DNA of 64,000 nt from sequence record PP358550; one strand, given 5' to 3'. The DNA comes from Escherichia phage FL04. Numbering within the stretch: the first letter of the stretch is position 1; each line of letters opens with the position of its first letter. Below the pieces are notes generated by a model, which was not told the origin of the DNA, did no database searches, and worked only from the letters and a program-made list of their open reading frames with translations. Both the position numbers and the translations under genes were made by a program. Positions 4,031 through 32,629 of this stretch are shown here, piece after piece.

Positions 4031-4462
4031 ATGGTTTATCCAACTCCTAGTAAGATTTACATTGACGATACTCATTTTCTTGTTGAAATTATGGGTATAA
4101 AGTTTAGTGGTAATGTTAAAATTGTAGAATGGGAATTGCACGGTCAACCTGTAACCGATTATGACCATTACATTCCTTTTTTGGGTGATGACAATTTTGT
4201 CTCGTTTGACCATGAAGGTTACATGATCTTTGAACAGTCTGACGTACCGACCTATCTAGCAATGATGCAAATTCCTACGAAGGTTTCTGTTGCTGAGGGT
4301 GATTGCGATTGTTGCGGTTGGTATACTGTAACAGATATTAAGCTGCCATCCGGTAAAGAACTCTATAACGAAGACCATTTTGGAAACTGCAATTTTCCGT
4401 GTGATTGGGATGAATTTTTCGAACTGGTAGAGATTGAGCGAACTTATTTGAGGAAGGGATAA
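4031..4462 (+). CDS. hypothetical protein
   Basis: GAGGATTATATA-ATG start; Cys cluster CDCCGW. Confidence 0.55.
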   Translation: MVYPTPSKIYIDDTHFLVEIMGIKFSGNVKIVEWELHGQPVTDYDHYIPFLGDDNFVSFDHEGYMIFEQSDVPTYLAMMQIPTKVSVAEGDCDCCGWYTVTDIKLPSGKELYNEDHFGNCNFPCDWDEFFELVEIERTYLRKG

Positions 4463-5274
4463 TGAAGAAAGCATTAGGTTTAATTCCCTATACTGGCAAT
4501 AAGGAAAAGTTATTGCCAAGTGTTAGTAAGTATTTCCCTAAGCACTATAACCGCTTTGTTGATGCCTTTTGTGGCGGCTTGAGCGTGTCTCTGTACGTCG
4601 AAGGGGATGTGCTGGCTAATGACTATGATCACCGCTTAATTGAAGCGTACAAAGCTATTGACGAGTGTCCTGATCCGGTTTTTATGATCAAGCGGATTAT
4701 TGCCGAAAATGGTTTGTCTCGCGAAGATAAAGACGCTTACATGACATTCCGTAAGAAGTATAACGAGAATCCAGATCCGCTATCTCTGTTTGTTCTGATT
4801 CAGCACAGTTTTAGCAACATTAACCGACATAACCGGAAGGGCGAATTTAATGCTAATTTTGGTCGCCGGACTTTTAACGAAAACGCGGTAGAGCGTGTCC
4901 TGAATTTTAAAGAAGAAAACAAAGACGGTCGAATCAGTTTTACGTCTGGTCGTTATGACGAGATCGAGATCTTGCCAGGTGATTTCGTTTATTTGGACCC
5001 GCCGTACCTTATCACTTCTGCGGAATATAATAAGTTCTGGAGTGACGAGGAAGAGATTAAATTCTATCAGTGGGTAGAATCTATTATGGCGCGTGGTTTT
5101 CAGTTTGGTATAAGTAATGTCACGCATCATAAGGGAAAGGCAAATGATCATCTTCTTGACTTTATCAAGCGGAATGATTTAAACTGCGTCTTGTTGAATA
5201 AGACCTATTGCCTAGATCGTTCAGGTGGCAAGTCTTCTGATACGCAAGAAGTTTATGTAACTAACGTAGATTGA
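4462..5274 (+). CDS. dam: DNA adenine (GATC) methyltransferase Dam
   Basis: Translation closely matches T4 Dam (as recalled) end to end, including DPPY catalytic motif and FCGG SAM-binding motif. Confidence 0.9.
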   Translation: MKKALGLIPYTGNKEKLLPSVSKYFPKHYNRFVDAFCGGLSVSLYVEGDVLANDYDHRLIEAYKAIDECPDPVFMIKRIIAENGLSREDKDAYMTFRKKYNENPDPLSLFVLIQHSFSNINRHNRKGEFNANFGRRTFNENAVERVLNFKEENKDGRISFTSGRYDEIEILPGDFVYLDPPYLITSAEYNKFWSDEEEIKFYQWVESIMARGFQFGISNVTHHKGKANDHLLDFIKRNDLNCVLLNKTYCLDRSGGKSSDTQEVYVTNVD

Positions 5275-5282
5275 GGTATAAC

Positions 5283-5564
5283 ATGGTAGAAATTTTTGGT
5301 TTTGAAGGTTACAACTGTAAGTATTGCCAGAATGCAAAGCGCCTTTGTGAATCGCGTAAGATCCCTTACATCTACATTCCGGTTAATGATGGTGTTGACG
5401 AAAACGGTCGCCCTGTAAAGATTGATTCTGTCATTGCCGATATTCAGGATCGAGCAGGGGTAGAAGTTATTGCCACCATGCCGCAGATTTTCTATAATGG
5501 TGATTATATTGGTGGCTTTGATGAGTTCCGATCCTTTGTAGTCAAAAACAAGATTAATGGTTAA
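5283..5564 (+). CDS. nrdC: NrdC-like glutaredoxin/thioredoxin
   Basis: CKYCQNAKRL redox motif and TMPQIF..GGFD match T4 NrdC; sits upstream of gene 49 as in T4. Confidence 0.8.
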   Translation: MVEIFGFEGYNCKYCQNAKRLCESRKIPYIYIPVNDGVDENGRPVKIDSVIADIQDRAGVEVIATMPQIFYNGDYIGGFDEFRSFVVKNKING

Positions 5565-6065: not shown

Positions 6066-6094
6066 TTGACAATAAGAAATGGGAGTAGTAAAAT
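6066..6094 (+). promoter_or_regulatory. sigma70-type promoter with GGGAGTA/TACTCCC dyad around -10
   Basis: TTGACA 6066-6071, spacer 17, TAAAAT 6089-6094; palindrome 6081-6100. Confidence 0.6.
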
Positions 6095-6125
6095 ACTCCC
6101 ATCTAATCAAGAAGGAGAATCAACA

Positions 6126-6398
6126 ATGCGTAAGATGTTTAAATCCGGTGTGGCCTATGTTTTTAAATCTGAGCAAGCACATAAAGACTTCTTAGATGAT
6201 GAATACGAAGGGGTGAAAGATACCTACGAAGTCATCAAGAATGGGTTTACTGTTCTTAAAGTGTCACCTGTTGGTTATGTAAGTGAAATAGCGGTTGATG
6301 GGAAAACATACACCGCTAAAGACTTTGACCCGCGTTGGGAATTTATGCTGCTTCCGTGTGAGCGCATTCTGTTCCGTGCTGTTCAATTAGTGAAATGA
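6126..6398 (+). CDS. hypothetical protein, multi-copy ~90-aa domain family (single domain)
   Basis: ATG 6126 after AAGGAGAATCAACA; shares G.YxF.......F...V..GF.VL.V...G.V..I..DG..YT pattern with at least 8 other genes. Confidence 0.6.
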   Translation: MRKMFKSGVAYVFKSEQAHKDFLDDEYEGVKDTYEVIKNGFTVLKVSPVGYVSEIAVDGKTYTAKDFDPRWEFMLLPCERILFRAVQLVK

Positions 6399-6412
6399 TA
6401 GAGGATTATATT

Positions 6413-6973
6413 ATGGTACAGAAAACGTATAAATTGTATCCGGCTAAGTCTTCAAATGATGCTGTTTTTGAACGAGGTCGTTATTACACTTTCCGTAGTG
6501 CAGAAACAGCCGCAGAATTTATCAAACGATGTCCGCAACATAATAAGTTCTTGTATGACGTGCTTTGTAACGGCTTTAAAGTTCTCACTGTTGATGCGAT
6601 GGGGCGTGTGTATCTGGTAGAAACTCATGGGTATGAAGGTGCATCTGTTCTGATTGCTGCAAACGAGCGCAAATACTTTAAACGCATCACTAAAAAGCAG
6701 TTTGAAGAAATGAAACCAGTTAAGAAAGAAGAATCTCTGGAAGATCTGATTAACTTGTTTGGTAAAGTTCGCTCTATCTCCTTTGCGATTGAAGATGACA
6801 TTACCGACAATAAAATCTTTATCAAGAACGCGGAAGACCTGAAAGAGTTCCTTATTGAAAATAGATCTCGACTGGAAACCTTTCTTGAAAGTGAAATTAT
6901 TCGACATGATACCTACGCTAAATTCAGCGCCGAGAAAGTGGAAGAACTGAAAGAGATTAAAAAGTCACTTTAA
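6413..6973 (+). CDS. hypothetical protein, multi-copy domain family (domain plus helical C-terminal tail)
   Basis: GAGGATTATATT-ATG start; contains NERKYFKRI motif. Confidence 0.6.
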   Translation: MVQKTYKLYPAKSSNDAVFERGRYYTFRSAETAAEFIKRCPQHNKFLYDVLCNGFKVLTVDAMGRVYLVETHGYEGASVLIAANERKYFKRITKKQFEEMKPVKKEESLEDLINLFGKVRSISFAIEDDITDNKIFIKNAEDLKEFLIENRSRLETFLESEIIRHDTYAKFSAEKVEELKEIKKSL

Positions 6974-6976
6974 CGC

Positions 6977-7005
6977 TTGACATGATGAAACGGGAGTAGT
7001 AAGAT
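6977..7005 (+). promoter_or_regulatory. sigma70-type promoter with GGGAGTA/TACTCCC dyad
   Basis: TTGACA 6977-6982, spacer 17, TAAGAT 7000-7005; palindrome 6992-7011. Confidence 0.6.
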
Positions 7006-7036
7006 ACTCCCATCTAAACAACGAGAGGATTATATT

Positions 7037-8215
7037 ATGGCTAAATTCTTTGAAGGTCATTACTATGCATTCCGTGAAGGCGGAAAAGATGAGTTTCTAG
7101 ACTTTTCTCGCTATTCAATTATTCTGACCGATGCTTCGCGCCGTGGTCATATTCGGGTTGCTGAAATCGTAGAAAAGGGCTTTAAAGTATTAGAAAAAGA
7201 TGACCACGGTCATGTTATTACTATTGAAGCTGGAGATGTAGTTTATTCCGCTAATGATATTGTTGATTATTGGGCTACTATGATTATGCACAATGAGCGT
7301 AAATACTTTAAACGCATCTCAAAAGAGGCATACGAAGCGATGAACAAGAAAGAGGATGCAATGCCGACTTACTTTGAAAAAGGTAAATGTTATTCGTTTA
7401 CCCCAGAAGGTTTGCAAGAATTTAAGCGATTCTGGGGAGAGCATGATCCAGATCACAAAGAAGCTATGAAACTTGTTGATTTTGTCGAATATGGCTTTTT
7501 AGTTGAAGAAGAATTGCACGGATCAGCTACCATGATCACCGCGAAAGGTGAAACTGTTAAGGCAGATCGTTTTTGTGATCAATGGAATTGCTTGTTTGAC
7601 GGTAGCGAATTTGAATACTTCGCGGAAATCACGAAACAACAATTTCATTCTATGCAAGCGGATGGTCAGAGATTTAAAGTAGGTGAACGCTACAAGCCAA
7701 ATCAGCATAATTTGCCATATTGGTTTACCGCTGAAACTGTATCAAGTCATGTTGTTGAAATTGTTCAAAAGCTGGGACAAGGATTTAAGGTGACTAAAGT
7801 AGATGATTATGGAAGTGTTGACGCGGTTGAAATTGATGGTGTAGAATATACACCGAAATCATTCGGGCTTTGCTGGTATCACCTGATCAGCAATGATGAA
7901 CGTTATAACTTTGTTGAACTGCCATCTGAACCGGAAGAAGCACTAGAAGATCATGATCATCTGTCTGAACTGGTTAAGCTGTTTGGTGATCTGCCGGATG
8001 GTGTAGGCGTGGCGGTAATGGGTGAAGGTGCTGTTATTCGAAACCTGAAAGACTTTAAAAAGTTCTTGATTGACATGCTGCCTAAACTTGATGATAATCT
8101 CGATACAGATATTCAGAATCGCAAAGAAATTGTTAAAGAGACTGAAAAAGAGATTGAAGAGATTCGAGCAATTCGCCAGAAGGTGAAAGCAGTAAAGAAA
8201 AAAGTTAGTGCTTGA
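7037..8215 (+). CDS. hypothetical protein, multi-copy domain family (three tandem domains plus C-terminal tail)
   Basis: 392 aa; internal repeats with HNERKYFKRI / EYFAEITKQQF / ERYNFVEL motifs. Confidence 0.65.
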   Translation: MAKFFEGHYYAFREGGKDEFLDFSRYSIILTDASRRGHIRVAEIVEKGFKVLEKDDHGHVITIEAGDVVYSANDIVDYWATMIMHNERKYFKRISKEAYEAMNKKEDAMPTYFEKGKCYSFTPEGLQEFKRFWGEHDPDHKEAMKLVDFVEYGFLVEEELHGSATMITAKGETVKADRFCDQWNCLFDGSEFEYFAEITKQQFHSMQADGQRFKVGERYKPNQHNLPYWFTAETVSSHVVEIVQKLGQGFKVTKVDDYGSVDAVEIDGVEYTPKSFGLCWYHLISNDERYNFVELPSEPEEALEDHDHLSELVKLFGDLPDGVGVAVMGEGAVIRNLKDFKKFLIDMLPKLDDNLDTDIQNRKEIVKETEKEIEEIRAIRQKVKAVKKKVSA

Positions 8216-8239
8216 CATGCGAAGGGAGTATGCTATAAT
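8212..8239 (+). promoter_or_regulatory. sigma70-type promoter with GGGAGTA/TACTCCC dyad
   Basis: TTGACA 8212-8217, spacer 16, TATAAT 8234-8239; palindrome 8224-8245. Confidence 0.6.
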
Positions 8240-8269
8240 ACTCCCACTTAACAACGAGAGGATTATATT

Positions 8270-8764
8270 ATGTGGGTACAAGATGTTTGGTATACTGTAA
8301 CTAAAGAAAACCTTGACGCATTCAGCGACCAATCTTGCGCTAATAGCTCAATTGCTGGTATACTTACTGATGTGTTTGGTGGTGTAGATAAAATTCGTTT
8401 TAAAGTTGTTGTTAATTCTATGGGGTGTGTAAAAGACCTATACACCGAAGATAAAGACCTTGATCTTGAACTTCGTCTTCGTATTGATAATGCAAGTCTA
8501 GGTTATTGGTTTGAAGATAACGAATATGAATACTTCACACCAGCAATTAAAGTTTTTGCGACTAAACTGGAAGCTGTACTGAATCTCCGACCAATTAATG
8601 TTGACGGTTACATTATCAAAAATATTCAGGATTGGGAGTTGTATCTAGATCAGGTTATCCGAAATAGTAAGCAGGATGCCGCTAATAAGAAGCGACAAGA
8701 GATTAAACAGCTTAAAGCTGAACTAGAAGCTAAAGAAAAAGAATTAGCAGAACTGGTAAAATAA
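8270..8764 (+). CDS. hypothetical protein with C-terminal coiled coil
   Basis: GAGGATTATATT-ATG start; KQLKAELEAKEKELAEL tail. Confidence 0.55.
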   Translation: MWVQDVWYTVTKENLDAFSDQSCANSSIAGILTDVFGGVDKIRFKVVVNSMGCVKDLYTEDKDLDLELRLRIDNASLGYWFEDNEYEYFTPAIKVFATKLEAVLNLRPINVDGYIIKNIQDWELYLDQVIRNSKQDAANKKRQEIKQLKAELEAKEKELAELVK

Positions 8765-8773
8765 CTATCAACG

Positions 8774-8796
8774 AGCGGGAGAAATCCCGCTTTTTC
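8774..8796 (+). terminator. rho-independent terminator
   Basis: GCGGGA-GAAA-TCCCGC hairpin followed by TTTTT. Confidence 0.6.
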
Positions 8797-8808
8797 ATAG
8801 GTGATACA

Positions 8809-10671
8809 ATGGAAAAACTAATCAAAGACATTACAGAGATCGCAACGGGTAAAGAAAACGAAGTGAGCAAAGAGAACGCGAACAAAGACGCGCGAACATT
8901 CCCGACACGTCGAGATCTGATTGCTGGCGCTGTGTCTAAACAGATTGCTAAAACCGTGTTACCTGAGCACATCTATAAAGCGCATGTAGACGGTGATATT
9001 CATTATCATGATATGGATTATGCACCAGCTATGCCGTTTACTAACTGCTGTCTTGTTAATCTCAAAGACATGTTAGAGAATGGTTTTAAATTGGGTAGCG
9101 CACAAATCGAAAGTCCGAAATCAATCGGCGTTGCTTGTGCTGTAACCGCTCAAATTATCGCACAGGTGGCAAGTCATCAATATGGCGGGACCACAATTGC
9201 AAACATCGATCAGGTTTTAGCGCCATACGTTGAGAAAACATATCATAAACACCTTGCTGATGCCGAAACCTACGGAATCAAAGCTGATACTCTCTATGCA
9301 CAAGAGAAGACAGAAAAAGAAACGCTAGACGGGTATCAAGCGTTGGAATATGAAATCAACACTTTGTTCTCCACCAACGGTCAAACGCCTTTTGTGACTT
9401 TAACCTTTGGTATGGGTACTAGCTGGGAAGAAAAACTGATTCAGAAAGCGATCCTGAAAGTTCGAACTAAAGGTTTAGGTAAAGATGGTATAACTCCGGT
9501 GTTTCCTAAGCTGGTGATGTTCTTAGAAGAAGGATTAAACCTTAAACCGGAAGATCCGAACTACGACATTAAGCAACTTGCATTGGAATGTTCTAGTAAG
9601 CGTCTTTACCCTGATTATATCTCTGCGAAGAATAACCGTAGTATCACTGGATCTAGTGTTCCGGTTAGCCCGATGGGTTGTCGTAGCTTCCTGGGTGTGT
9701 GGCATAATGAGAAAGGCGAAGAAGTATTAGACGGACGTAATAACTTAGGTGTTGTGACTCTGAATCTTCCGCGTATTGCCCTTATTGCCGCGCGTCGTGC
9801 TGGTAAAGCGTCTGTAATGCGCAGAATTGAGCTATTCGAACAAGAGCTAGCTAATCGTATGCCTATTTGCTTTGATGCGCTCATGAGTCGCGTAGACGCT
9901 TTAAAAGGGGCTAAAGCCAATGTTGCTCCGGTGCTGTATACAGAAGGTGCATTTTTCCGTATTCATCAAAACGATGAAATTTTGGAAGTGCTGAAAGATG
10001 GTCGCGCTAGTATCTCTCTTGGATATATTGGTTTACATGAGGTATTGAGCGTCCTGTTTGGTGTTCATCCGTTTGATTCGGAAGATGCGCAGCGATACGG
10101 TAAACATATTCTTAAGATCTTGCGTCATTATACTGAAAAATGGAAGGACGAAACCGGACTTGGGTTTAGTCTTTACGGTACGCCAGCCGAGAGCCTTTGC
10201 TATCGATTTAATCGACTGGACCGAGAGCAATTTGGTATTGTTAAGGGTGCTACCGATAAAGACTGGTACACCAACTCATTCCACCTTGACGTAGACCGGA
10301 AAGTCACTCCATTTGAGAAAATCGACTTTGAGAAAGATTATCACTGGCTGGCGTCCGGTGGCATGATCTCTTATGTTGAGTTCCCAGACATGAAAAACAA
10401 CCTGAAAGGTCTTGAAACTGTAGTGGACTATGCAATGGATAAATTGCACTACTTCGGTGTTAATACTCCTTCTGATGTGTGTCATGTATGCGGGTCTACT
10501 AAGGAAATGAGAGCGACCGAGTTTGGTTTTGTTTGTCCTGATTGCGGAAATGATAATCTGGAAAAGATGAATGTTATCCGTCGCGTTAGTGGATATCTTG
10601 GATCTGTTGATCTGCGTCCATTTAACCACGGGAAACATTCCGAGATGGTAAACCGCGTTAAGCACATGTAA
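8809..10671 (+). CDS. nrdD: anaerobic ribonucleoside-triphosphate reductase
   Basis: 620 aa; C-terminal Zn ribbon (CHVCGS...CPDCG) and glycyl-radical motif RVSGYLG. Confidence 0.95.
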   Translation: MEKLIKDITEIATGKENEVSKENANKDARTFPTRRDLIAGAVSKQIAKTVLPEHIYKAHVDGDIHYHDMDYAPAMPFTNCCLVNLKDMLENGFKLGSAQIESPKSIGVACAVTAQIIAQVASHQYGGTTIANIDQVLAPYVEKTYHKHLADAETYGIKADTLYAQEKTEKETLDGYQALEYEINTLFSTNGQTPFVTLTFGMGTSWEEKLIQKAILKVRTKGLGKDGITPVFPKLVMFLEEGLNLKPEDPNYDIKQLALECSSKRLYPDYISAKNNRSITGSSVPVSPMGCRSFLGVWHNEKGEEVLDGRNNLGVVTLNLPRIALIAARRAGKASVMRRIELFEQELANRMPICFDALMSRVDALKGAKANVAPVLYTEGAFFRIHQNDEILEVLKDGRASISLGYIGLHEVLSVLFGVHPFDSEDAQRYGKHILKILRHYTEKWKDETGLGFSLYGTPAESLCYRFNRLDREQFGIVKGATDKDWYTNSFHLDVDRKVTPFEKIDFEKDYHWLASGGMISYVEFPDMKNNLKGLETVVDYAMDKLHYFGVNTPSDVCHVCGSTKEMRATEFGFVCPDCGNDNLEKMNVIRRVSGYLGSVDLRPFNHGKHSEMVNRVKHM

Positions 10672-10676
10672 TTTTC

Positions 10677-10705
10677 AGCCGATCCGAAAGGGTCGGCTTT
10701 TTCGT
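10677..10705 (+). terminator. rho-independent terminator
   Basis: AGCCGATCC-GAAA-GGGTCGGCT hairpin plus T-run. Confidence 0.6.
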
Positions 10706-10714
10706 TTTGGGGTG

Positions 10715-10742
10715 TTGACAACCTGATTAGCTAATGTATAAT
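10715..10742 (+). promoter_or_regulatory. sigma70-type promoter (extended -10)
   Basis: TTGACA 10715-10720, spacer 16, TGTATAAT ending 10742. Confidence 0.55.
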
Positions 10743-10771
10743 GCTCACATCGAAAACAACGAGAGGACAAC

Positions 10772-11314
10772 ATGATGATGATGTTTTGTGTACTGAGCAA
10801 AGAAGTTAAACTTCGTAAACTGGAAATTGGCGATGGTGTTGTTGTTAAAATGCACGCTAGCACATTGGCTAGTTTTAATTTAAAGGAAAGTTTTTTTATT
10901 AGAGGAACGGTGGTTAATATCTGCTGGAGTCAATGCGAAGGAATCCGTAGCTTTTGCGTAATTGACGATGATAATAACCTGTATGTGATTCGCTATCATA
11001 ATAATTCTGTATTGGTCTATACCGACAATTCACGAGAATTATATACTCTTGAATTTGTTAAGCGTACTGATTGCGACCTATTTGTTCGTGCTTATGAAGA
11101 AGATGGCTGTTTTGCGACTGAAACAGAAACAAATGAATATGTTCCTATGGAAGTAGGGGCAGAAATTAAACACAAGATCACGGATCGTATTTTTAAGGTT
11201 GTGGCGGTTGCTCATACTCAATTTGTAGCGCAAGCGCCGGATGAAGAATTTATTATCTACAATATTGGTAATGCAAGTTCTCATTTTCATAATGTACTAT
11301 ATCGCGACCTTTGA
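10772..11314 (+). CDS. hypothetical protein
   Basis: ORF after AGAGGA RBS, in the nrdD-nrdG gap. Confidence 0.5.
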   Translation: MMMMFCVLSKEVKLRKLEIGDGVVVKMHASTLASFNLKESFFIRGTVVNICWSQCEGIRSFCVIDDDNNLYVIRYHNNSVLVYTDNSRELYTLEFVKRTDCDLFVRAYEEDGCFATETETNEYVPMEVGAEIKHKITDRIFKVVAVAHTQFVAQAPDEEFIIYNIGNASSHFHNVLYRDL

Positions 11315-11331
11315 TAATGTGTGAGGTGAAT

Positions 11332-11859
11332 ATGAAATCATTAAACCGTAAGCGTAAAGCACAACGACACAAAGAACGAGCTAAAAAGATTGCTATTGAA
11401 CTCTGTGAGCGTGAGGATAGCTATTTGTCTACTGGTCGTTTGTATACATTCCATGCATTGATTGATGGTAAGCCAGTGTTGCATAATCATGATTGCTTGG
11501 CACTGTTTCACGAGATCGAACCAATCCATCGTGAATGGGATGACAACAAAGCAAAAGGTCAATATTTCCTTACGTGTTCGTGTGGTCATGCTGGTTGTGC
11601 TGGATATTGGGAACCTGTTACTATCCGTGAGAAAAATGATGCCATTCAATGGGTCTCCCGTACCCGCGATGGTTATGATAAAGGGGTTGATGGTACTGGC
11701 GATAACGTAGTTTACTTTAATCGTGATTGGTATTATATGGCGCGATGTATGATCCTGTTTTATCTTGACTCGATGCCGTATGAATATTTCAGTTTCCAGA
11801 ATGGGACCGAACTGACAGGGAAGGAATGGTCTGAATACATTCGAAAAAATTTAAAATAA
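11332..11859 (+). CDS. hypothetical Cys/His-rich protein
   Basis: ATG 11332 after GAGGTGA; CSCGHAGCAGYW cluster. Confidence 0.5.
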   Translation: MKSLNRKRKAQRHKERAKKIAIELCEREDSYLSTGRLYTFHALIDGKPVLHNHDCLALFHEIEPIHREWDDNKAKGQYFLTCSCGHAGCAGYWEPVTIREKNDAIQWVSRTRDGYDKGVDGTGDNVVYFNRDWYYMARCMILFYLDSMPYEYFSFQNGTELTGKEWSEYIRKNLK

Positions 11860-11863
11860 ATGC

Positions 11864-11892
11864 TTGACGGGGATCGCGAGATCCCCTATACT
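11864..11892 (+). promoter_or_regulatory. sigma70-type promoter with GGGGATCGCGAGATCCCC palindrome in spacer
   Basis: TTGACG 11864-11869, spacer 17, TATACT 11887-11892; two GATC sites. Confidence 0.6.
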
Positions 11893-11934
11893 ATATTCAT
11901 CAAGACGAGATACAACTTTACAGGAGAATCAAAT

Positions 11935-12087
11935 ATGTGGACTTTACTGATTTGGGAAACTGAAAACGCACAAGTAGAAATCCGTGAATACGAATACCTA
12001 AGCCCAGCTTATCTATTGGCATCTCGCGGTGGTTACTATAAAGCGCAGATTGTAAACGAGTTCGGGGTAATTGAATATGAGTTCTGA
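11935..12087 (+). CDS. hypothetical small protein
   Basis: ATG 11935 after CAGGAGAATCAAAT RBS; overlaps nrdG start. Confidence 0.35.
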   Translation: MWTLLIWETENAQVEIREYEYLSPAYLLASRGGYYKAQIVNEFGVIEYEF

Positions 12088-12580
12088 TACATACGGCAAA
12101 CTACGCTATGCCGATATTAAAGATTGTGATATGGTTAACGGTGAGGGAGTGAGAGTCTCCCTTTACGTTACCGGATGTTCACACGCATGTGATGGTTGCT
12201 TTAATGCTAGCCTACTCAATCCTAAGAACGGGGAACCATTCACCGATGATACAATGGGATTGATTCTGGATCTGCTTAGACCTGGTTTTATTCAGGGGCT
12301 AACATTCTTAGGTGGCGATCCATTGTATAAACGCAATTTAAAGGGTGTACAGCGGATCATCGATGAAGTAAAATCATGGATGCCAAATAAAGATATTTGG
12401 CTATGGTCTGGTTATACCCTTGACCAATTGAATGATGAGCAAAGAAAAATTGTAGAATCAGTTGACATGTTCATCGATGGGCGTTATATTAAAGATATGC
12501 CGACGAAGAAGCCGTGGCGGGGGTCTGACAATCAAGTACAATACAAGATTGTTAATAGTATTCCAGTAAAAATTATTTGA
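12071..12580 (+). CDS. nrdG: anaerobic ribonucleotide reductase activating protein (radical SAM)
   Basis: CSHACDGC radical-SAM cysteine motif; size and context match T4 NrdG. Confidence 0.9.
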   Translation: MNMSSDTYGKLRYADIKDCDMVNGEGVRVSLYVTGCSHACDGCFNASLLNPKNGEPFTDDTMGLILDLLRPGFIQGLTFLGGDPLYKRNLKGVQRIIDEVKSWMPNKDIWLWSGYTLDQLNDEQRKIVESVDMFIDGRYIKDMPTKKPWRGSDNQVQYKIVNSIPVKII

Positions 12581-12590
12581 GGTGATTGCT

Positions 12591-13079
12591 ATGAAATGGG
12601 AATTGGGTAAGATGTACACTCTTGATGGTGATGAGAAGAAAGCAGAATTTACCAAATCTGAACTGTCAATCAACCGTCAAGTTGCTGAGTTTCTTGATGG
12701 ACGTCCTTTTACAGTCGAGGTTATGAGTAATGAGGGTCATGTTCTTGAAATCTCGTTAAGTGATGGTAAATGTATTTCTGTTCGAGACACTCCAATTGGT
12801 GCGCACGGTGCATGGTTTTGGGCTGGTGAACGTCGATTCTTTAAAGAAGTTAAAGAACCAGATCTAACTTTAGAACGTCTGGGTCTGCTTATGGAAGCCT
12901 ACGACATTCAGTTAATCGATAAGACGGGGTTACAACATAGTATTGCCAAAATTACTACCCTAGAAGGTATTAAGAGCGTTCTAAATGGTATGCCTAGCCG
13001 GATTGGTGCTATCCGCGAATACAAGCAAACGCGAGACCGTATGATCCAATTAGAATCACGTATCAAAAATGAGAGATAA
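12591..13079 (+). CDS. hypothetical protein, multi-copy domain family (domain plus helical tail)
   Basis: MKWELGKMYT...WFWAGERRFFKEV; first of four tandem family genes. Confidence 0.6.
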   Translation: MKWELGKMYTLDGDEKKAEFTKSELSINRQVAEFLDGRPFTVEVMSNEGHVLEISLSDGKCISVRDTPIGAHGAWFWAGERRFFKEVKEPDLTLERLGLLMEAYDIQLIDKTGLQHSIAKITTLEGIKSVLNGMPSRIGAIREYKQTRDRMIQLESRIKNER

Positions 13080-13083
13080 TATT

Positions 13084-13569
13084 ATGAAATGGGAAGAAGG
13101 TAAGACCTATGCGTTGGTTGGCGAATACGAAAAGCGTATTTTGCGTGATTGTTGGAGTTACGAACAAAGACCTAATATTGATGGTATGTTTACATATCTA
13201 GATAAACCATTTACTGTCGCTACGGTAGACCGTTGGGGTAATGTGCGTTCAATCTATAATCACGAAGGGGATTATATTAGTTCTATCGATATTGGTGATA
13301 ATATATGGTTTTCCGATGGTGACCGAGCGTGCTTCAAAGAAGTTTTATTACCTGGTCATGAATATGATCTAATAGACCTTCTCAAATTGGCGATGGATAA
13401 TTATAAAATTCGCTTTGAATGCAAATCACATGCGGCTATCGGTGCTAACGCCTTGCGTCATATCTCCAGTTTTGAAGAGTTGAAAGATTTTCTTGACAAA
13501 ATGCCGGAAAGAGTGCAAGCTATACAGGAAGCCGAGAAAGCATTAAACGAACTTGATAAAATCGGTTAA
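13084..13569 (+). CDS. hypothetical protein, multi-copy domain family
   Basis: MKWEEGKTY...DRACFKEV; tandem paralog. Confidence 0.6.
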   Translation: MKWEEGKTYALVGEYEKRILRDCWSYEQRPNIDGMFTYLDKPFTVATVDRWGNVRSIYNHEGDYISSIDIGDNIWFSDGDRACFKEVLLPGHEYDLIDLLKLAMDNYKIRFECKSHAAIGANALRHISSFEELKDFLDKMPERVQAIQEAEKALNELDKIG

Positions 13570-13581
13570 GGGGAATATATT

Positions 13582-14415
13582 ATGAAATGGGAAATTGGTA
13601 AAACTTACACCTGGAAAGATGAAAACGCTAAAACTGAGTTTATTACTAACGGAGAAGGTGTTCTTTCTCCACTTAACAGCGATATTAGTGCAGCTATTGG
13701 TGACAAGCCATTTACCATCATCGAGATCGAGGGTAACGGTTGGATTGATGCAATAGAGCTAGACGGTGTTTATCATACGGCGAAAACTGCTACAGGAAAA
13801 GACATTTGGACTGCAACATATTTCTTTAGTCCATTCGATAGAAAATTCTTTCGTGAAGTTGAAGAAGTTCCTCCTAAATGGGAAGTTGGTAAAACTTATA
13901 CTTGGAAAGATGAAGACGCAAAAGTGATGTTTTCTAGTATTGGTCATATTACCAATCGTAAAATTGCTGAGTGGATAGGAGATGATACTTTTACGGTATC
14001 TTCCGTTGATTCTGTTGGCATCGTTACTATGATCGACGTCAATAATGAGAGTGCTTGCGGAACATTTAATCCTCATTCAGCGGGTGTTGATGATGTTGAT
14101 GCTGTGTGGTTTGTTGAGCGTGAACGAAAATTCTTTCGTGAAGTTGAAGCAGTGAAAGAACCAGAAGAAAAGGTGAACGATGATTCTAAGATCGTTGGAC
14201 AGTTGAAACGTCTGTTTAGTAGTCGTTACGGCCTGACAATGGTTAAATTTGGCGAAGCAAATGAAGGTAAAACCTTTGAACGTTTCGATGATTTCATCGC
14301 AGCACTTGACAAGATGGACGAAATAATGCAAGATCGCCAGAAGATTAAAGACCTTCAAGAAGACATTAAACGTCGTGAAGTTGAATTTTTGATTGGTAAA
14401 GAGCGAGGATGGTAA
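13582..14415 (+). CDS. hypothetical protein, multi-copy domain family (two tandem domains plus tail)
   Basis: Two internal copies: KWE(I/V)GKTYTWKDE...RKFFREVE. Confidence 0.65.
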   Translation: MKWEIGKTYTWKDENAKTEFITNGEGVLSPLNSDISAAIGDKPFTIIEIEGNGWIDAIELDGVYHTAKTATGKDIWTATYFFSPFDRKFFREVEEVPPKWEVGKTYTWKDEDAKVMFSSIGHITNRKIAEWIGDDTFTVSSVDSVGIVTMIDVNNESACGTFNPHSAGVDDVDAVWFVERERKFFREVEAVKEPEEKVNDDSKIVGQLKRLFSSRYGLTMVKFGEANEGKTFERFDDFIAALDKMDEIMQDRQKIKDLQEDIKRREVEFLIGKERGW

Positions 14416-14416
14416 T

Positions 14417-14896
14417 ATGTTTGTTGTTGGTATGACCTATCAGTGGAAAAACGAGCGAGCGCGGAAAGTCTTTGCAACCAGTGTTGCAAATGATGCAATA
14501 GCAGACTTTATCGGTGACCGTACATTTAAAGTTATCGCTTTTGAAAAAATTGCGTCAGATATCGAATATGTTTCTGCGATTGAAATTGATGGAAAAACAT
14601 ACACCTGTCGAGATGTTGATGATGTACGGGAATACGCGCACAACTGGTTTTTGCAATCAGAAGAACGTTATTTTAAAGTGGTGTCGTCAGAACTGACTAC
14701 TGATGCAATGTTGGAACAATTCTTCAATAACTACGAAGTTTCTGTACGTCGCTATGGCGAAGAAGAAGTGTTTAAAATCGATGATTACAATCAGTTTAAA
14801 CGAGTATTCGCCACTAAGTTGCAGCGTGACTTTGAACGTGACCAACGGATCAAGGAACTGGAAGAAGAACTAGAAAGATTAAAGGCTGAGAAATGA
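14417..14896 (+). CDS. hypothetical protein, multi-copy domain family
   Basis: ATG 14417 after GAGGATGG; EERYFKVV motif; coiled-coil tail. Confidence 0.55.
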   Translation: MFVVGMTYQWKNERARKVFATSVANDAIADFIGDRTFKVIAFEKIASDIEYVSAIEIDGKTYTCRDVDDVREYAHNWFLQSEERYFKVVSSELTTDAMLEQFFNNYEVSVRRYGEEEVFKIDDYNQFKRVFATKLQRDFERDQRIKELEEELERLKAEK

Positions 14897-15331: not shown

Positions 15332-15619
15332 ATGTTAGTACACAATGCAATCGCACACATGGTTTACTCTCGATTTGGGTGCATGGAAGAAATCAATATT
15401 ACCGACGCGGATTTAGATCTGATGCAAGTCGAAGGTCAGACATATCTGAAAAATAACGGCGTGAATATCGGTAAAGCGCGTGTGCGTGAATTGTTGGTTG
15501 AATATATTCTCTCTGAATTTGGCATTAGTGCTTTCGGTGTGAAAGAAATTGCACCTAAGCGCGAAATTTCTGATAAAATGATCAAGAAATGCCAGAAAGC
15601 ACGACGTAAGGGTTTCTAA
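15332..15619 (+). CDS. hypothetical protein
   Basis: ATG 15332 after GAGGAATATATT. Confidence 0.5.
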   Translation: MLVHNAIAHMVYSRFGCMEEINITDADLDLMQVEGQTYLKNNGVNIGKARVRELLVEYILSEFGISAFGVKEIAPKREISDKMIKKCQKARRKGF

Positions 15620-17088
15620 TGAAGATTGAAACATTAATCGCATTGCCAGCGGCGGGGAAAACTGATGCTATACTTTCCCACGTCCTAGAGACAAAAGAAA
15701 AAGCGGTTATTGCTTCGCCATCTCGTGTTTTAAGTGAACAATCTTACAATAAGTTTAAAAGAATGGGCGGTCGTGCTGTCTTGATTGATAGCACAAGACT
15801 AAGAAGCCTTAAGACAGTGCAAGCGTCGATAATGCAATCAGTTAAAGATGGTGCTGATGTGATATTCATTACACACACCGCGTTATCTAATATGGAACGT
15901 TCAAAAATGTTTGGTGAATATGCCCTTTACATTGATGAAGTTCCTCAACTGGTTGAATTTAATGAGTATCCGTTTAAGTCTAATCTTGAACTTATCACGA
16001 AGCATTGCGAACCAATCGCCGACGAATCGGAATGCCTACAGAACTTAGTTCTAAAAGACTCTGAGAAGTCCGCTATCAAAGAAAAGATAGAAAGTGCAAA
16101 GGATGGTACTGATATGATCGATTCTTCTCTTAGAGGGCTTTATGAGGCGTTATTAGAGAAGAAAATCAACGTTATGGTAAAACATAACGAAGGACACCGG
16201 AAGAATGGGTCGAAAATTGTTTTCTTGAACGATAACAAACACGGTACGTGGGGAGACTTTAAAAAGGTTACGATAGCATGTGCAAATCTCTTTGATACAT
16301 ATAGCGGGAAGTATCTACGATACTATGCAAATTGCGATTTTGTTCCGAGTGCGCTAGAATCCAGACTATATTTCAAAGAGTATAAAAATACAGATAGAGT
16401 TAATATCATCCTTATGACGGACTCCGAACGATGGTCGCGTCACCAGTCAGAAACAAACAATACCTTTGAACGTCTTGTTGATATGGTTAAAAATGAATGT
16501 GGTGATGACTTCATTTATACCGTGAATCGGGACCGTGAAGCGTGCACAAATGGTATTGGTGAGCGGATACCTTACGGGTCTTATGGTCTTAACTCTTACA
16601 TTCATCATAAAAATGTTGCTGTGATGTTCAGCTTTAACCCTCAACGATGGGAGATTGATATTTTAAAAGGTCTTGCTAATAGTTGTGATCTCCCAACAAA
16701 TGAGTTTTTGAAAGCGCGTCATGTGTCTGATTATCTGGAACCAGCATTTCAATTATGTTTGCGTTGTAACTTGAGAGACAACGAGAGCAAGGAGAATGTT
16801 AATCTATATGTTCCTGATTGGGCGTTGGTAGATTATCTAAAAACGTTTCTGCCTAATGCCAATGTAATAACAGATCGGATGATTTCGCTAGAATGTGGTG
16901 AGCGTAAAGGGCGAAAATCATTTAAAAAGATGTTCGATTTTAACGAGCAAGAGAATGCAAGATTTAACGGATTTAAGTACCGCATGAAGAAAAAAGGAAA
17001 AACTCTTGATCCGTCTGACGGTGAATCTGTAGAGATGGTTAGAGTGTGGATAACTAAGCAAAGAAAGTATAATGGTAATGGGGAATAG
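15619..17088 (+). CDS. P-loop NTPase of unknown function (possibly helicase-like)
   Basis: 489 aa; N-terminal Walker A-like ALPAAGKT and Walker B-like ALYIDEV; no confident T4 counterpart recalled. Confidence 0.65.
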   Translation: MKIETLIALPAAGKTDAILSHVLETKEKAVIASPSRVLSEQSYNKFKRMGGRAVLIDSTRLRSLKTVQASIMQSVKDGADVIFITHTALSNMERSKMFGEYALYIDEVPQLVEFNEYPFKSNLELITKHCEPIADESECLQNLVLKDSEKSAIKEKIESAKDGTDMIDSSLRGLYEALLEKKINVMVKHNEGHRKNGSKIVFLNDNKHGTWGDFKKVTIACANLFDTYSGKYLRYYANCDFVPSALESRLYFKEYKNTDRVNIILMTDSERWSRHQSETNNTFERLVDMVKNECGDDFIYTVNRDREACTNGIGERIPYGSYGLNSYIHHKNVAVMFSFNPQRWEIDILKGLANSCDLPTNEFLKARHVSDYLEPAFQLCLRCNLRDNESKENVNLYVPDWALVDYLKTFLPNANVITDRMISLECGERKGRKSFKKMFDFNEQENARFNGFKYRMKKKGKTLDPSDGESVEMVRVWITKQRKYNGNGE

Positions 17089-31943: not shown

Positions 31944-31949
31944 TAAAAT

Positions 31950-31965
31950 GCGCCCTGCGGGGCGC
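31950..31965 (+). other. GC-rich tetraloop hairpin (weak terminator or RNA stability element)
   Basis: GCGCCC-TGCG-GGGCGC directly after gene 41 stop; no U-tract. Confidence 0.35.
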
Positions 31966-31993
31966 TGGTGAATGATTTGATAGGAGATATAAC

Positions 31994-32629
31994 ATGATCG
32001 CTAATGCTTTACCGCCAAAATGGATCGTAAGTCGCTTTTATACTCTCAAGGAAGGTAACGCACCTGATGGTCGTCCGATCCGAGATCTGTTTCTGGAGAT
32101 GACTACAGCCGAAGCACAGTTTTATAATGATCTGACAGACGATAAGCCATTTCTCGTAAATTCGGTGGACCTTGATGGCAATGTCACATCAATCATCACA
32201 CATGGTGGGGGAGTGAAAAATATTACTTCTCTGCGTGATCACGGTTGGGAAATTGCTTGTGTATTTCCTGCGGATGTACGCGGATTCTTTGATGAGGTAT
32301 CTGATATTAAAGTAAATGCACTGGAACCATATGACGAGATCCCACCACTGAAAGAAGAAAAAGAGTTGACACCAGAAGATGTAGATAGTACACTACACCC
32401 AGACCTATTTAAGAAGATTAGCGGTTTATGGACTGTTACCCTGTATCCAACCGCATTAGGTCTAGAATTGGGTATGCCAACTTATTCTGATATTGATAAC
32501 TGGAATAAGAGCATTGATAAAGAGGTTACAAGAGAGCGAAATAATGCTAAAATGCAACTTAAAGAGAAACGCAAAAATCTTGAACGACAACTGAAAGAAA
32601 CAAAACATTTGCTTTCTACATTCGATTGA
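31994..32629 (+). CDS. hypothetical protein, multi-copy domain family plus coiled-coil tail
   Basis: PKWIVSRFYTLKEG...VRGFFDEV shares family motifs. Confidence 0.55.
   Translation: MIANALPPKWIVSRFYTLKEGNAPDGRPIRDLFLEMTTAEAQFYNDLTDDKPFLVNSVDLDGNVTSIITHGGGVKNITSLRDHGWEIACVFPADVRGFFDEVSDIKVNALEPYDEIPPLKEEKELTPEDVDSTLHPDLFKKISGLWTVTLYPTALGLELGMPTYSDIDNWNKSIDKEVTRERNNAKMQLKEKRKNLERQLKETKHLLSTFD

Follow-up and report, generated by a model that had tools for sequence, protein, structure and literature searches.

The closest described relatives of the proteins considered here are GoF (ComC-alpha, NP_049624), Frd.2 and MotB.1 of bacteriophage T4, three proteins that were recently grouped as a phage family with an 'LSm-like fold' (Kim et al. 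2025; PMC12152347). T4 goF mutants carrying the substitutions D25Y or G84R rescue growth on rho mutants, and GoF(D25Y) raises the level of gene 41 mRNA post-transcriptionally, by a longer half-life, an effect that is not observed for wild-type GoF and MotB.1 (PMC12152347). What GoF does in its wild-type form has been a standing question since the rho-suppressor genetics of the 1970s-1980s. A second relevant system is the modular shuffling described for the T4-type phages RB49 and phi1, in which short patches of homology (<50 bp), associated with intergenic promoter/stem-loop cassettes (PeSLs), allow modules to be inserted, deleted and replaced in early regions of high plasticity (Arbiol et al. 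2010; PMC2839356). RB49-type phages, paralog expansion and tandem barrels are not mentioned by Kim et al., nor are the barrel genes mentioned by Arbiol et al. A literature search retrieved no paper on the barrel family beyond Kim et al., and these genes are not discussed in the RB49/phi1 comparative papers. Here we describe a 64,000-nucleotide (nt) stretch of Escherichia phage FL04 (PP358550), referred to as the window, in which the GoF-type barrel occurs twelve times in nine genes, as compared to three barrels in three genes in T4.

The window derives from a Krischvirus (RB49/GEC-3S type), a T4-type coliphage; its 9-kb segment 6000-15000 is 93-97% identical to 58 Krischvirus genomes, among them RB49, Phi1, JSE, GEC-3S and ECD7. 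The nine barrel genes, designated A to I in order of position, all lie on the + strand and are arranged in two four-gene tandem blocks (6126-8764 and 12591-14896) and a solo gene (31994-32629; Table 1). The first array is located in the interval from gene 49 (endonuclease VII) to nrdD, the second in that from nrdG to nrdH. A first-pass annotation, made from the letters of the window, listed eight of these open reading frames (ORFs), all of which were recovered where it had placed them on the + strand. It spoke of at least nine genes, and the ninth, missing from its list, is gene D. The tandem of four members that it recognized at 12.6-14.9 kb indeed exists, and is joined by a second block of four formed by genes A-D.

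When a profile constructed from the window domains only is searched against all 1415 six-frame ORFs of T4, the best match is goF (E=5.6e-9, 33 bits) and the next is frd.2 (E=2.4e-6), with alignments over the full domain in each case. With a second-iteration profile, to which metagenome representatives were added, goF (1e-18), frd.2 (4e-12) and motB.1 (9e-7) are retrieved and no other T4 ORF falls below 0.01. The nine genes make up the set of GoF/Frd.2/MotB.1 N-terminal barrel family members that Krischvirus carries; they expand a family that was described recently, and do not constitute a novel protein type. The earlier view that the domain could not be assigned to a characterised T4 protein family is thus superseded by the top ranks of goF and frd.2, with which existing annotation agrees. 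Gene C is already named 'frd.2' in the original RB49 record, and B and C carry the RefSeq/PHROGs label 'goF mRNA metabolism modulator'. In PHROGs, B and C belong to phrog_8944 and G partly to phrog_2980 and phrog_13003, all three annotated as goF, and the other members are found in unnamed families. Pfam contains no model matching at E<=1 apart from unrelated sub-threshold matches, and NCBIfam gives nothing.

Barrels G2, B, H, G1 and I have their highest scores with GoF, and C3 (the nearest) and D with Frd.2, but none of the window genes is a clear one-to-one ortholog of the T4 proteins (pairwise scores <=18.5 bits). GoF shares with the window proteins the homologous N-terminal barrel of ~90 amino acids (aa) and the end motif E..FF.EV, and is described as an early, acidic and non-essential protein. 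It differs, however, in combining a single barrel with a short C-terminal region that lacks a long terminal helix, and in having a glycine at position 84, which is occupied by lysine or arginine in half of the window barrels. Frd.2 and MotB.1 are members of the same barrel family, but each contains a single barrel, and MotB.1 is found by the second-iteration profile only. The genomic positions differ as well: T4 goF is located between gene 39 and motB, a site that is empty in Krischvirus, and the interval from gene 39 to dexA, where goF is found in T4, contains no goF in Krischvirus. Scans of GEC-3S over 1-75 kb and 110-146 kb, with the late structural genes at 75-110 kb outside the scan, revealed no further member.

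In all-against-all BLASTP the members are connected by matches of 25-36% identity that span the ~90-aa unit. In a leave-one-gene-out analysis the profile was rebuilt eleven times, each time with all domains of one gene omitted, and the omitted domain was scored against the window ORFs of at least 40 aa. The omitted domain ranked first every time (11 domains, ~634 window ORFs; E 1.6e-16 to 9.7e-7). The best of 1100 composition-preserving shuffles reached 9.1 bits, and with leave-one-out E-values far beyond the shuffles the similarity reflects, as the first-pass annotation had supposed, homology instead of an aromatic-rich composition. Gene D is the second-best ORF in every run (10.8-17.2 bits), and is matched with E=2.4e-9 by a second-iteration profile that was trained without any D-like sequence; its tail, too, is of the type found in the other members. 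A MAFFT alignment of 11 units shows invariant residues Y10, F41 and F89, and near-invariant residues G7, F21, V43, G50 and W80. The start motif, previously given as KWE.GK.Y, takes the broader form [KR]-[WF]-x-x-G-x-x-Y, and the full end motif ER[KR][FY]F[KR]EV is present in about half of the barrels, with only E..[YF]F.EV conserved family-wide. Over 96 family barrels the conserved positions belong mostly to the hydrophobic core, to which G6, N28, G49, G59, E80 and E86 (numbering of E) are added; the E..[YF]F.EV motif is conserved over these barrels as well. The description of the domain as W/Y/F-rich is appropriate for most members (10-14.5% aromatic residues), but not for E (7.4%) and I (8.5%).

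The AlphaFold2 model of E has a mean predicted local distance difference test score (pLDDT) of 82.7, and of about 90 in the barrel, which is built in the order β1, two helices, β2, β3, β4 and β5. Gene C (pLDDT 78.5, predicted template modelling score 0.37) is modelled as three barrels of the same order, with disordered or low-confidence linkers at residues 106-111 and 299-307. Both models match the family definition of a bent five-stranded antiparallel sheet domain, followed by a flexible linker and a C-terminal region. Tails are present in eight of the nine genes, the exception being A. In E the tail is predicted to consist of a helix (residues 94-103), a hairpin (106-121) and helices (124-161), and in C of a helix, a hairpin and then a 55-residue helix. 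Based on these two models the tails have one conserved predicted fold, comprising a helix, a β-hairpin and a long amphipathic helix, despite weak sequence similarity. The tail, which had been described as an often present, divergent, helical or coiled-coil extension of ~70 aa, is accordingly confirmed in eight genes, but contains more than helix and has a common fold in the models of E and C.

A Foldseek search against the Protein Data Bank (PDB) gives nothing at E<=1e-3, and a PDB sequence search reveals no solved relative. The closest solved structures are FeoA-type SH3-like domains and SH3-like domains of metal regulators, the C-terminal domains of the DtxR, IdeR and MntR type, as has been published for GoF (PMC12152347). 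The Sm/LSm/Hfq fold, which provided the label used in that study, is also a small, bent, five-stranded antiparallel barrel. There, however, a helix precedes the barrel, whereas the helices of the window proteins are located inside the barrel sequence; in addition, Hfq and Sm proteins are absent from the top structural matches, and the sequence profiles of Pfam and NCBIfam give no LSM/Hfq match. In view of the internal helices and of the absence of Hfq and Sm proteins among the top matches, the domain is labelled more exactly as an 'FeoA/SH3-like small barrel', and the data do not support placing it in Sm/LSm proper. The likeness to FeoA (PF04023) is at the fold level only: no Pfam match is obtained, and the window neighbours are endonuclease VII, nrdD, nrdG, nrdH and helicase 41, not feoB. 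The published multimer models, obtained with AlphaFold3, are of low confidence (PMC12152347).

The same eight intact array genes are retained in all seven isolate genomes examined. Relative to the window, the whole family genes show nonsynonymous divergence (dN) of 0.03-0.17 and ratios to synonymous divergence (dN/dS) of 0.23-0.52, with bimodal identities, whereas the neighbours endonuclease VII, nrdD, nrdG and nrdH have dN <=0.01 and dN/dS of 0.004-0.17. The divergence is concentrated in the barrels (pooled dN 0.137, dS 0.36; dN/dS 0.19-0.60) as opposed to the tails (pooled dN 0.030, dS 0.167), with dN/dS of 0.08-0.17 in five of the seven tails, those of C, E, F, G and H. The earlier proposal of a target-binding module with a variable effector tail is therefore reversed within the genus: it is the barrel that varies and the tail that is conserved, with B as a partial exception, since two allele classes occur in its tail, too. 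Barrels D, E, F, G2 and H each occur as two or three allele classes and drop to 48-71% nt identity in some genomes, against 92-99% for the tails and for nrdD, nrdG and nrdH; A, C1, C2 and G1 are the conserved barrels. The borders are sharp. Between the window and RB49, the barrel of E is 47% identical at the aa level and its tail ~95% (93% nt); for F the values are 45% and 100%, and for G they are 100% for G1, 39% for G2 and 100% for the tail. Across genomes, the two classes of F share ~45% aa identity, with a tail at 96-99% nt identity, and G combines a conserved G1 (94-99%) and tail (97% nt) with three allele classes of G2, the alternative ones being 36-39% and 81-83% identical (aa) to that of the window.

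All four combinations of the F and G2 allele classes are found, which requires recombination between F and G2. The dS between allele classes reaches ~1.1, indicating that old alleles are reshuffled by recombination and are not the product of recent bursts of positive selection, and the dN/dS of 0.19-0.60 in the barrels indicates that the genes are kept functional. No gene-wide diversifying selection is seen, with dN/dS below 1 throughout. The idea of an arms-race or host-takeover function stands as far as it describes genuine paralogs that are located in an early, plastic region and evolve fast in the manner of host-interaction genes, but without the gene-wide diversifying selection. When the eight genomes were searched for barrels exchanged between loci, only two pairs passed a 50% identity filter, both of which were discounted, unverified, as probable end-gap artefacts; with these set aside, the alternative alleles do not resemble products of simple conversion from sister loci.

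Conserved coding patches of ~30-48 nt are located at barrel ends. Direct repeats of 48 nt and 28 nt mark the 5' and 3' ends of several barrels in the second array (Table 1), and between them the barrel cores share only about 40% protein identity. In two 46.5-kb metagenome contigs (L017 and L018; 6001-6537) only two genes are present between nrdG and nrdH, versus four in the window. The first of these is a chimera that joins the start of E to G1 and the tail of G, and L017 lacks E, F and G2. BLASTN comparison of L017 with RB49 places both deletion crossovers in overlaps of 32-34 nt, which are exactly the 48-nt and the 28-nt patch, one each. A third contig (L019; 5941-6878) contains one mid-barrel E/G2 chimera and a frameshifted H. 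Less than 50 bp of homology suffices for T4-type recombination (as cited in PMC2839356), which makes the conserved coding patches plausible sites of exchange. The process resembles the PeSL shuffling of RB49 and phi1, the same phages, in its use of short patches, but differs in that PeSLs are intergenic and move whole ORFans, whereas here the patches are coding and a protein domain is exchanged in frame. PeSL-type modular shuffling is thereby extended from whole genes to protein domains.

Four sigma-70-like promoters with near-consensus to perfect sequences are predicted in front of A, C, D and E, and two of them are annotated as promoters in GEC-3S. In these phages such promoters are early promoters (PMC2839356), and early expression of the barrel genes, as assumed in the first-pass annotation, is predicted from these sites and the GEC-3S annotation. 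The promoter at gene A overlaps an inverted repeat, GGGAGTA / TACTCCC (6081-6100), and resembles a PeSL of RB49/phi1.

Table 1. Barrel genes, direct repeats and predicted promoters in the window.
Feature	Position	Strand	Description
Gene A	6126..6398	+	one barrel, no tail, 90 aa; leave-one-out E=1.6e-16; phrog_16115
Gene B	6413..6973	+	barrel ~6455-6718 and C-terminal tail; phrog_8944 'goF mRNA metabolism modulator', E=5e-97
Gene C	7037..8215	+	three tandem barrels, C1 7037-7336, C2 7352-7654, C3 7658-7954; tail 7955-8215; three profile stretches
Gene D	8270..8764	+	divergent barrel 8270-8557 and tail; window-only profile E=1e-3
Gene E	12591..13079	+	barrel 12591-12866 and tail
Gene F	13084..13569	+	barrel 13084-13359 and tail
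Gene G	13582..14415	+	two tandem barrels, G1 13582-13872, G2 13873-14181; tail 14182-14415; two profile stretches
Gene H	14417..14896	+	barrel 14417-14704 and tail
Gene I	31994..32629	+	solo; barrel ~32009-32311 and longer tail; leave-one-out E=1.4e-7; phrog_16187
48-nt direct repeat, barrel 5' ends	13585..13632 (reference, G1); 12594-12641 (E); 13087-13134 (F); 13876-13923 (G2)	+	G1 and G2 copies 90% identical
28-nt direct repeat, barrel 3' ends	13841..13868 (reference, G1); 12832-12859 (E); 14126-14153 (G2)	+	G1 and G2 copies 96% identical
Predicted sigma-70-like promoter	6066-6094	+	before A; TTGACA-17-TAAAAT; annotated as promoter in GEC-3S
Predicted sigma-70-like promoter	6977-7005	+	before C; near-consensus
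Predicted sigma-70-like promoter	8212-8239	+	before D; perfect 12/12; annotated as promoter in GEC-3S
Predicted sigma-70-like promoter	12462-12490	+	before E, within the end of nrdG; 11/12

Beyond the window, an exhaustive profile search of 1.84 billion representatives gives 91 matches at E<=1e-3, of which ~75 are small proteins with one to three barrels. Long matches such as P0073 were rejected as RCC1-like repeat proteins with a partial alignment only. A word-index protein search starting from the domain alignment retrieves 11 close Krischvirus-like proteins. Foldseek against BFVD yields 74 matches at E<=1e-3, of which 50 are listed. None of these 50 is a characterised protein, and every organism-named one among them is from a phage of enterobacteria or Aeromonas, the named hosts being Escherichia, Shigella, Proteus, Aeromonas, Edwardsiella, Citrobacter, Morganella, Pectobacterium, Klebsiella, Enterobacter and Serratia. 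Several of the listed matches often come from one phage, e.g. ECD7 or Pectobacterium phage PM2, which together with the one-to-three-barrel homologs indicates that multi-copy and multi-barrel members are not unique to Krischvirus. With twelve barrels per genome, multi-barrel chains, constant tails and discrete alleles among near-identical phages, Krischvirus nevertheless provides a richer natural experiment on this family than T4.

Taken as a whole, these observations are probably best explained, though by no means with certainty, by a set of early, modular host-interaction proteins of the GoF family that are linked to mRNA metabolism and whose arrays evolve by in-frame recombination. Each protein consists of one to three SH3/FeoA-like barrels of ~90 aa and, in eight of the nine, a locus-specific C-terminal module. 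The barrel may serve as the target-recognition module and the tail as a constant scaffold, possibly for self-association. Produced from sigma-70-type early promoters, the proteins would most likely act post-transcriptionally, on the metabolism of mRNA or on RNA decay linked to termination. They would do so by binding to a macromolecule of the host, for which a protein or ribonucleoprotein is a better candidate than naked RNA. Homologous recombination at the short nucleotide patches that code for the barrel termini changes the arrays, by swapping, deleting and presumably duplicating whole barrels in frame.

The suppressor mutations of T4 goF offer clues to this function. In the profile alignment G84 of GoF corresponds to the third residue of E-R-[KR]-[FY]-F. 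Lysine or arginine is present at this position in six of the twelve window barrels (B, C1, E, G1, G2 and H) and glycine only in I; with K/R as the commonest residue in this column, the T4 G84R suppressor restores what is most common in Krischvirus. The column equivalent to D25 is hypervariable (D, R, F, E, E, S, C, N, I, gap, M and Q), and the notion that paralogs mimic D25Y was dropped for this reason. Both suppressor changes make GoF less acidic. Net charge was scored for 11 barrels, without a separate score for D. Ten of them are neutral to acidic (0 to -11), as is GoF, and the only basic barrel is B, with a net charge of +4. Acidic barrels, charge-reducing suppressors and the protein-binding FeoA/SH3/Tudor neighbours of the fold together suggest that a host protein or ribonucleoprotein is more likely to be the target than naked RNA. 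A further-reaching combination of these elements is tentative, and we would not expect it to hold in full: the barrel would be a hypervariable specificity cassette, of which ancient alleles are maintained in the Krischvirus population and reshuffled in frame onto constant tails by recombination at the conserved coding patches, as a counterpart of PeSL shuffling at the level of domains, generating a combinatorial early repertoire against strain-variable host factors, and the barrels with K/R at the G84 position would already be 'gain-of-function' forms with the RNA-stabilising activity of the T4 suppressor mutant.

Several points weigh against the explanation in terms of early, mRNA metabolism-linked host-interaction proteins. 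No phenotype was found for wild-type GoF or MotB.1, and goF and motB.1 are dispensable in T4 (PMC12152347). A heptad test on the terminal helices is not significant, which leaves coiled-coil self-association unproven. The allele comparison comprises eight genomes in all, and the metagenome contigs are short-read assemblies. Finally, the non-family ORFs 10778-11314 (phrog_14838) and 11332-11859 (phrog_8242) show similar allele replacement, and the divergent alleles in these neighbours imply that the high turnover is partly regional and not a property of the family only.

The alternative that best withstands the data, but is still unlikely, is that the proteins act on RNA directly, as chaperones or RNA-binding proteins of the LSm/Hfq type, in which the barrels would bind transcripts of phage or host and protect them from decay, and the multi-barrel proteins would mimic an Sm ring. 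The five-stranded barrel resembles the Sm/LSm/Hfq fold in outline, but the neutral to acidic character of all but one of the scored barrels is at odds with such RNA binding. It is also possible, though we consider it quite improbable, that the proteins are counter-defence factors or inhibitors of host factors, each barrel allele neutralising a different host protein, such as a nuclease or a defence sensor, under strain-specific selection and without a link to mRNA metabolism. The reassortment of discrete barrel alleles on constant tails would suit such a role, as would the differences in copy number between related contigs, the early genes in a plastic region, the acidic surfaces on an FeoA/SH3-type protein-binding fold and the several BFVD matches listed from the same phage. 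However, positive selection acting on whole genes is not apparent, non-family neighbour ORFs turn over similarly, and the only genetics available for the family points to rho and mRNA levels.

That the genes are neutral or decaying duplicates, now functionless by-products of active T4-type recombination in a hyperplastic region, is very improbable. The mid-barrel chimera and frameshifted H of L019, the loss of three barrels in L017 and the dispensability of goF and motB.1 in T4 would agree with decay, but the complete set of intact array genes in seven out of seven isolates, the low dN/dS (most clearly in the tails), the hydrophobic core and E..[YF]F.EV motif preserved over the 96 family barrels, and the many homologs listed from other named phages do not. 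A compositional or low-complexity artefact is refuted, in spite of the partial matches of the profile to long RCC1-like repeat proteins such as P0073, by leave-one-out E-values of 1e-16 to 1e-6 against a best shuffle of 9.1 bits, by alignments that span the full domain and by a predicted fold that agrees across models.

Some further features of the window were noted. Gene I is located immediately 3' of the gene 41-type helicase, a curious position since the T4 GoF mutants act on gene 41 mRNA, although this may be a coincidence. The segment between the helicase stop and the start of gene I (31944-31993) contains a hairpin GCGCCC-TGCG-GGGCGC (31950-31965), with a 6-bp all-GC stem and no T-run. 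After nrdD, at 10677-10742, a GC-rich hairpin with a T-run is followed by a perfect 12/12 sigma-70 promoter (10715-10742), a putative terminator-promoter pair before ORF 10778-11314. This ORF and ORF 11332-11859 have 64-76% nt identity to their counterparts in JK32 and UPWr_E1, and 50% aa identity to those in JSE, with flanks at ~98%. The barrel profile also matches ORF 2150-2512 (phrog_15990), weakly and over part of its length (E=0.003, profile positions 30-85); this ORF is not counted here, but may be a very distant or truncated relative. ORF 15619-17088 (489 aa, phrog_2467), 3' of nrdH, has in related contigs a weak DEAD-helicase Pfam match only. The content of homing endonucleases varies among close relatives (window 4462-5564; contigs L001, 27-782, and L014, 4076-4597): an HNH endonuclease gene located between dam and nrdC in GEC-3S is missing from the window, and in JSE nrdD is split by a homing endonuclease.

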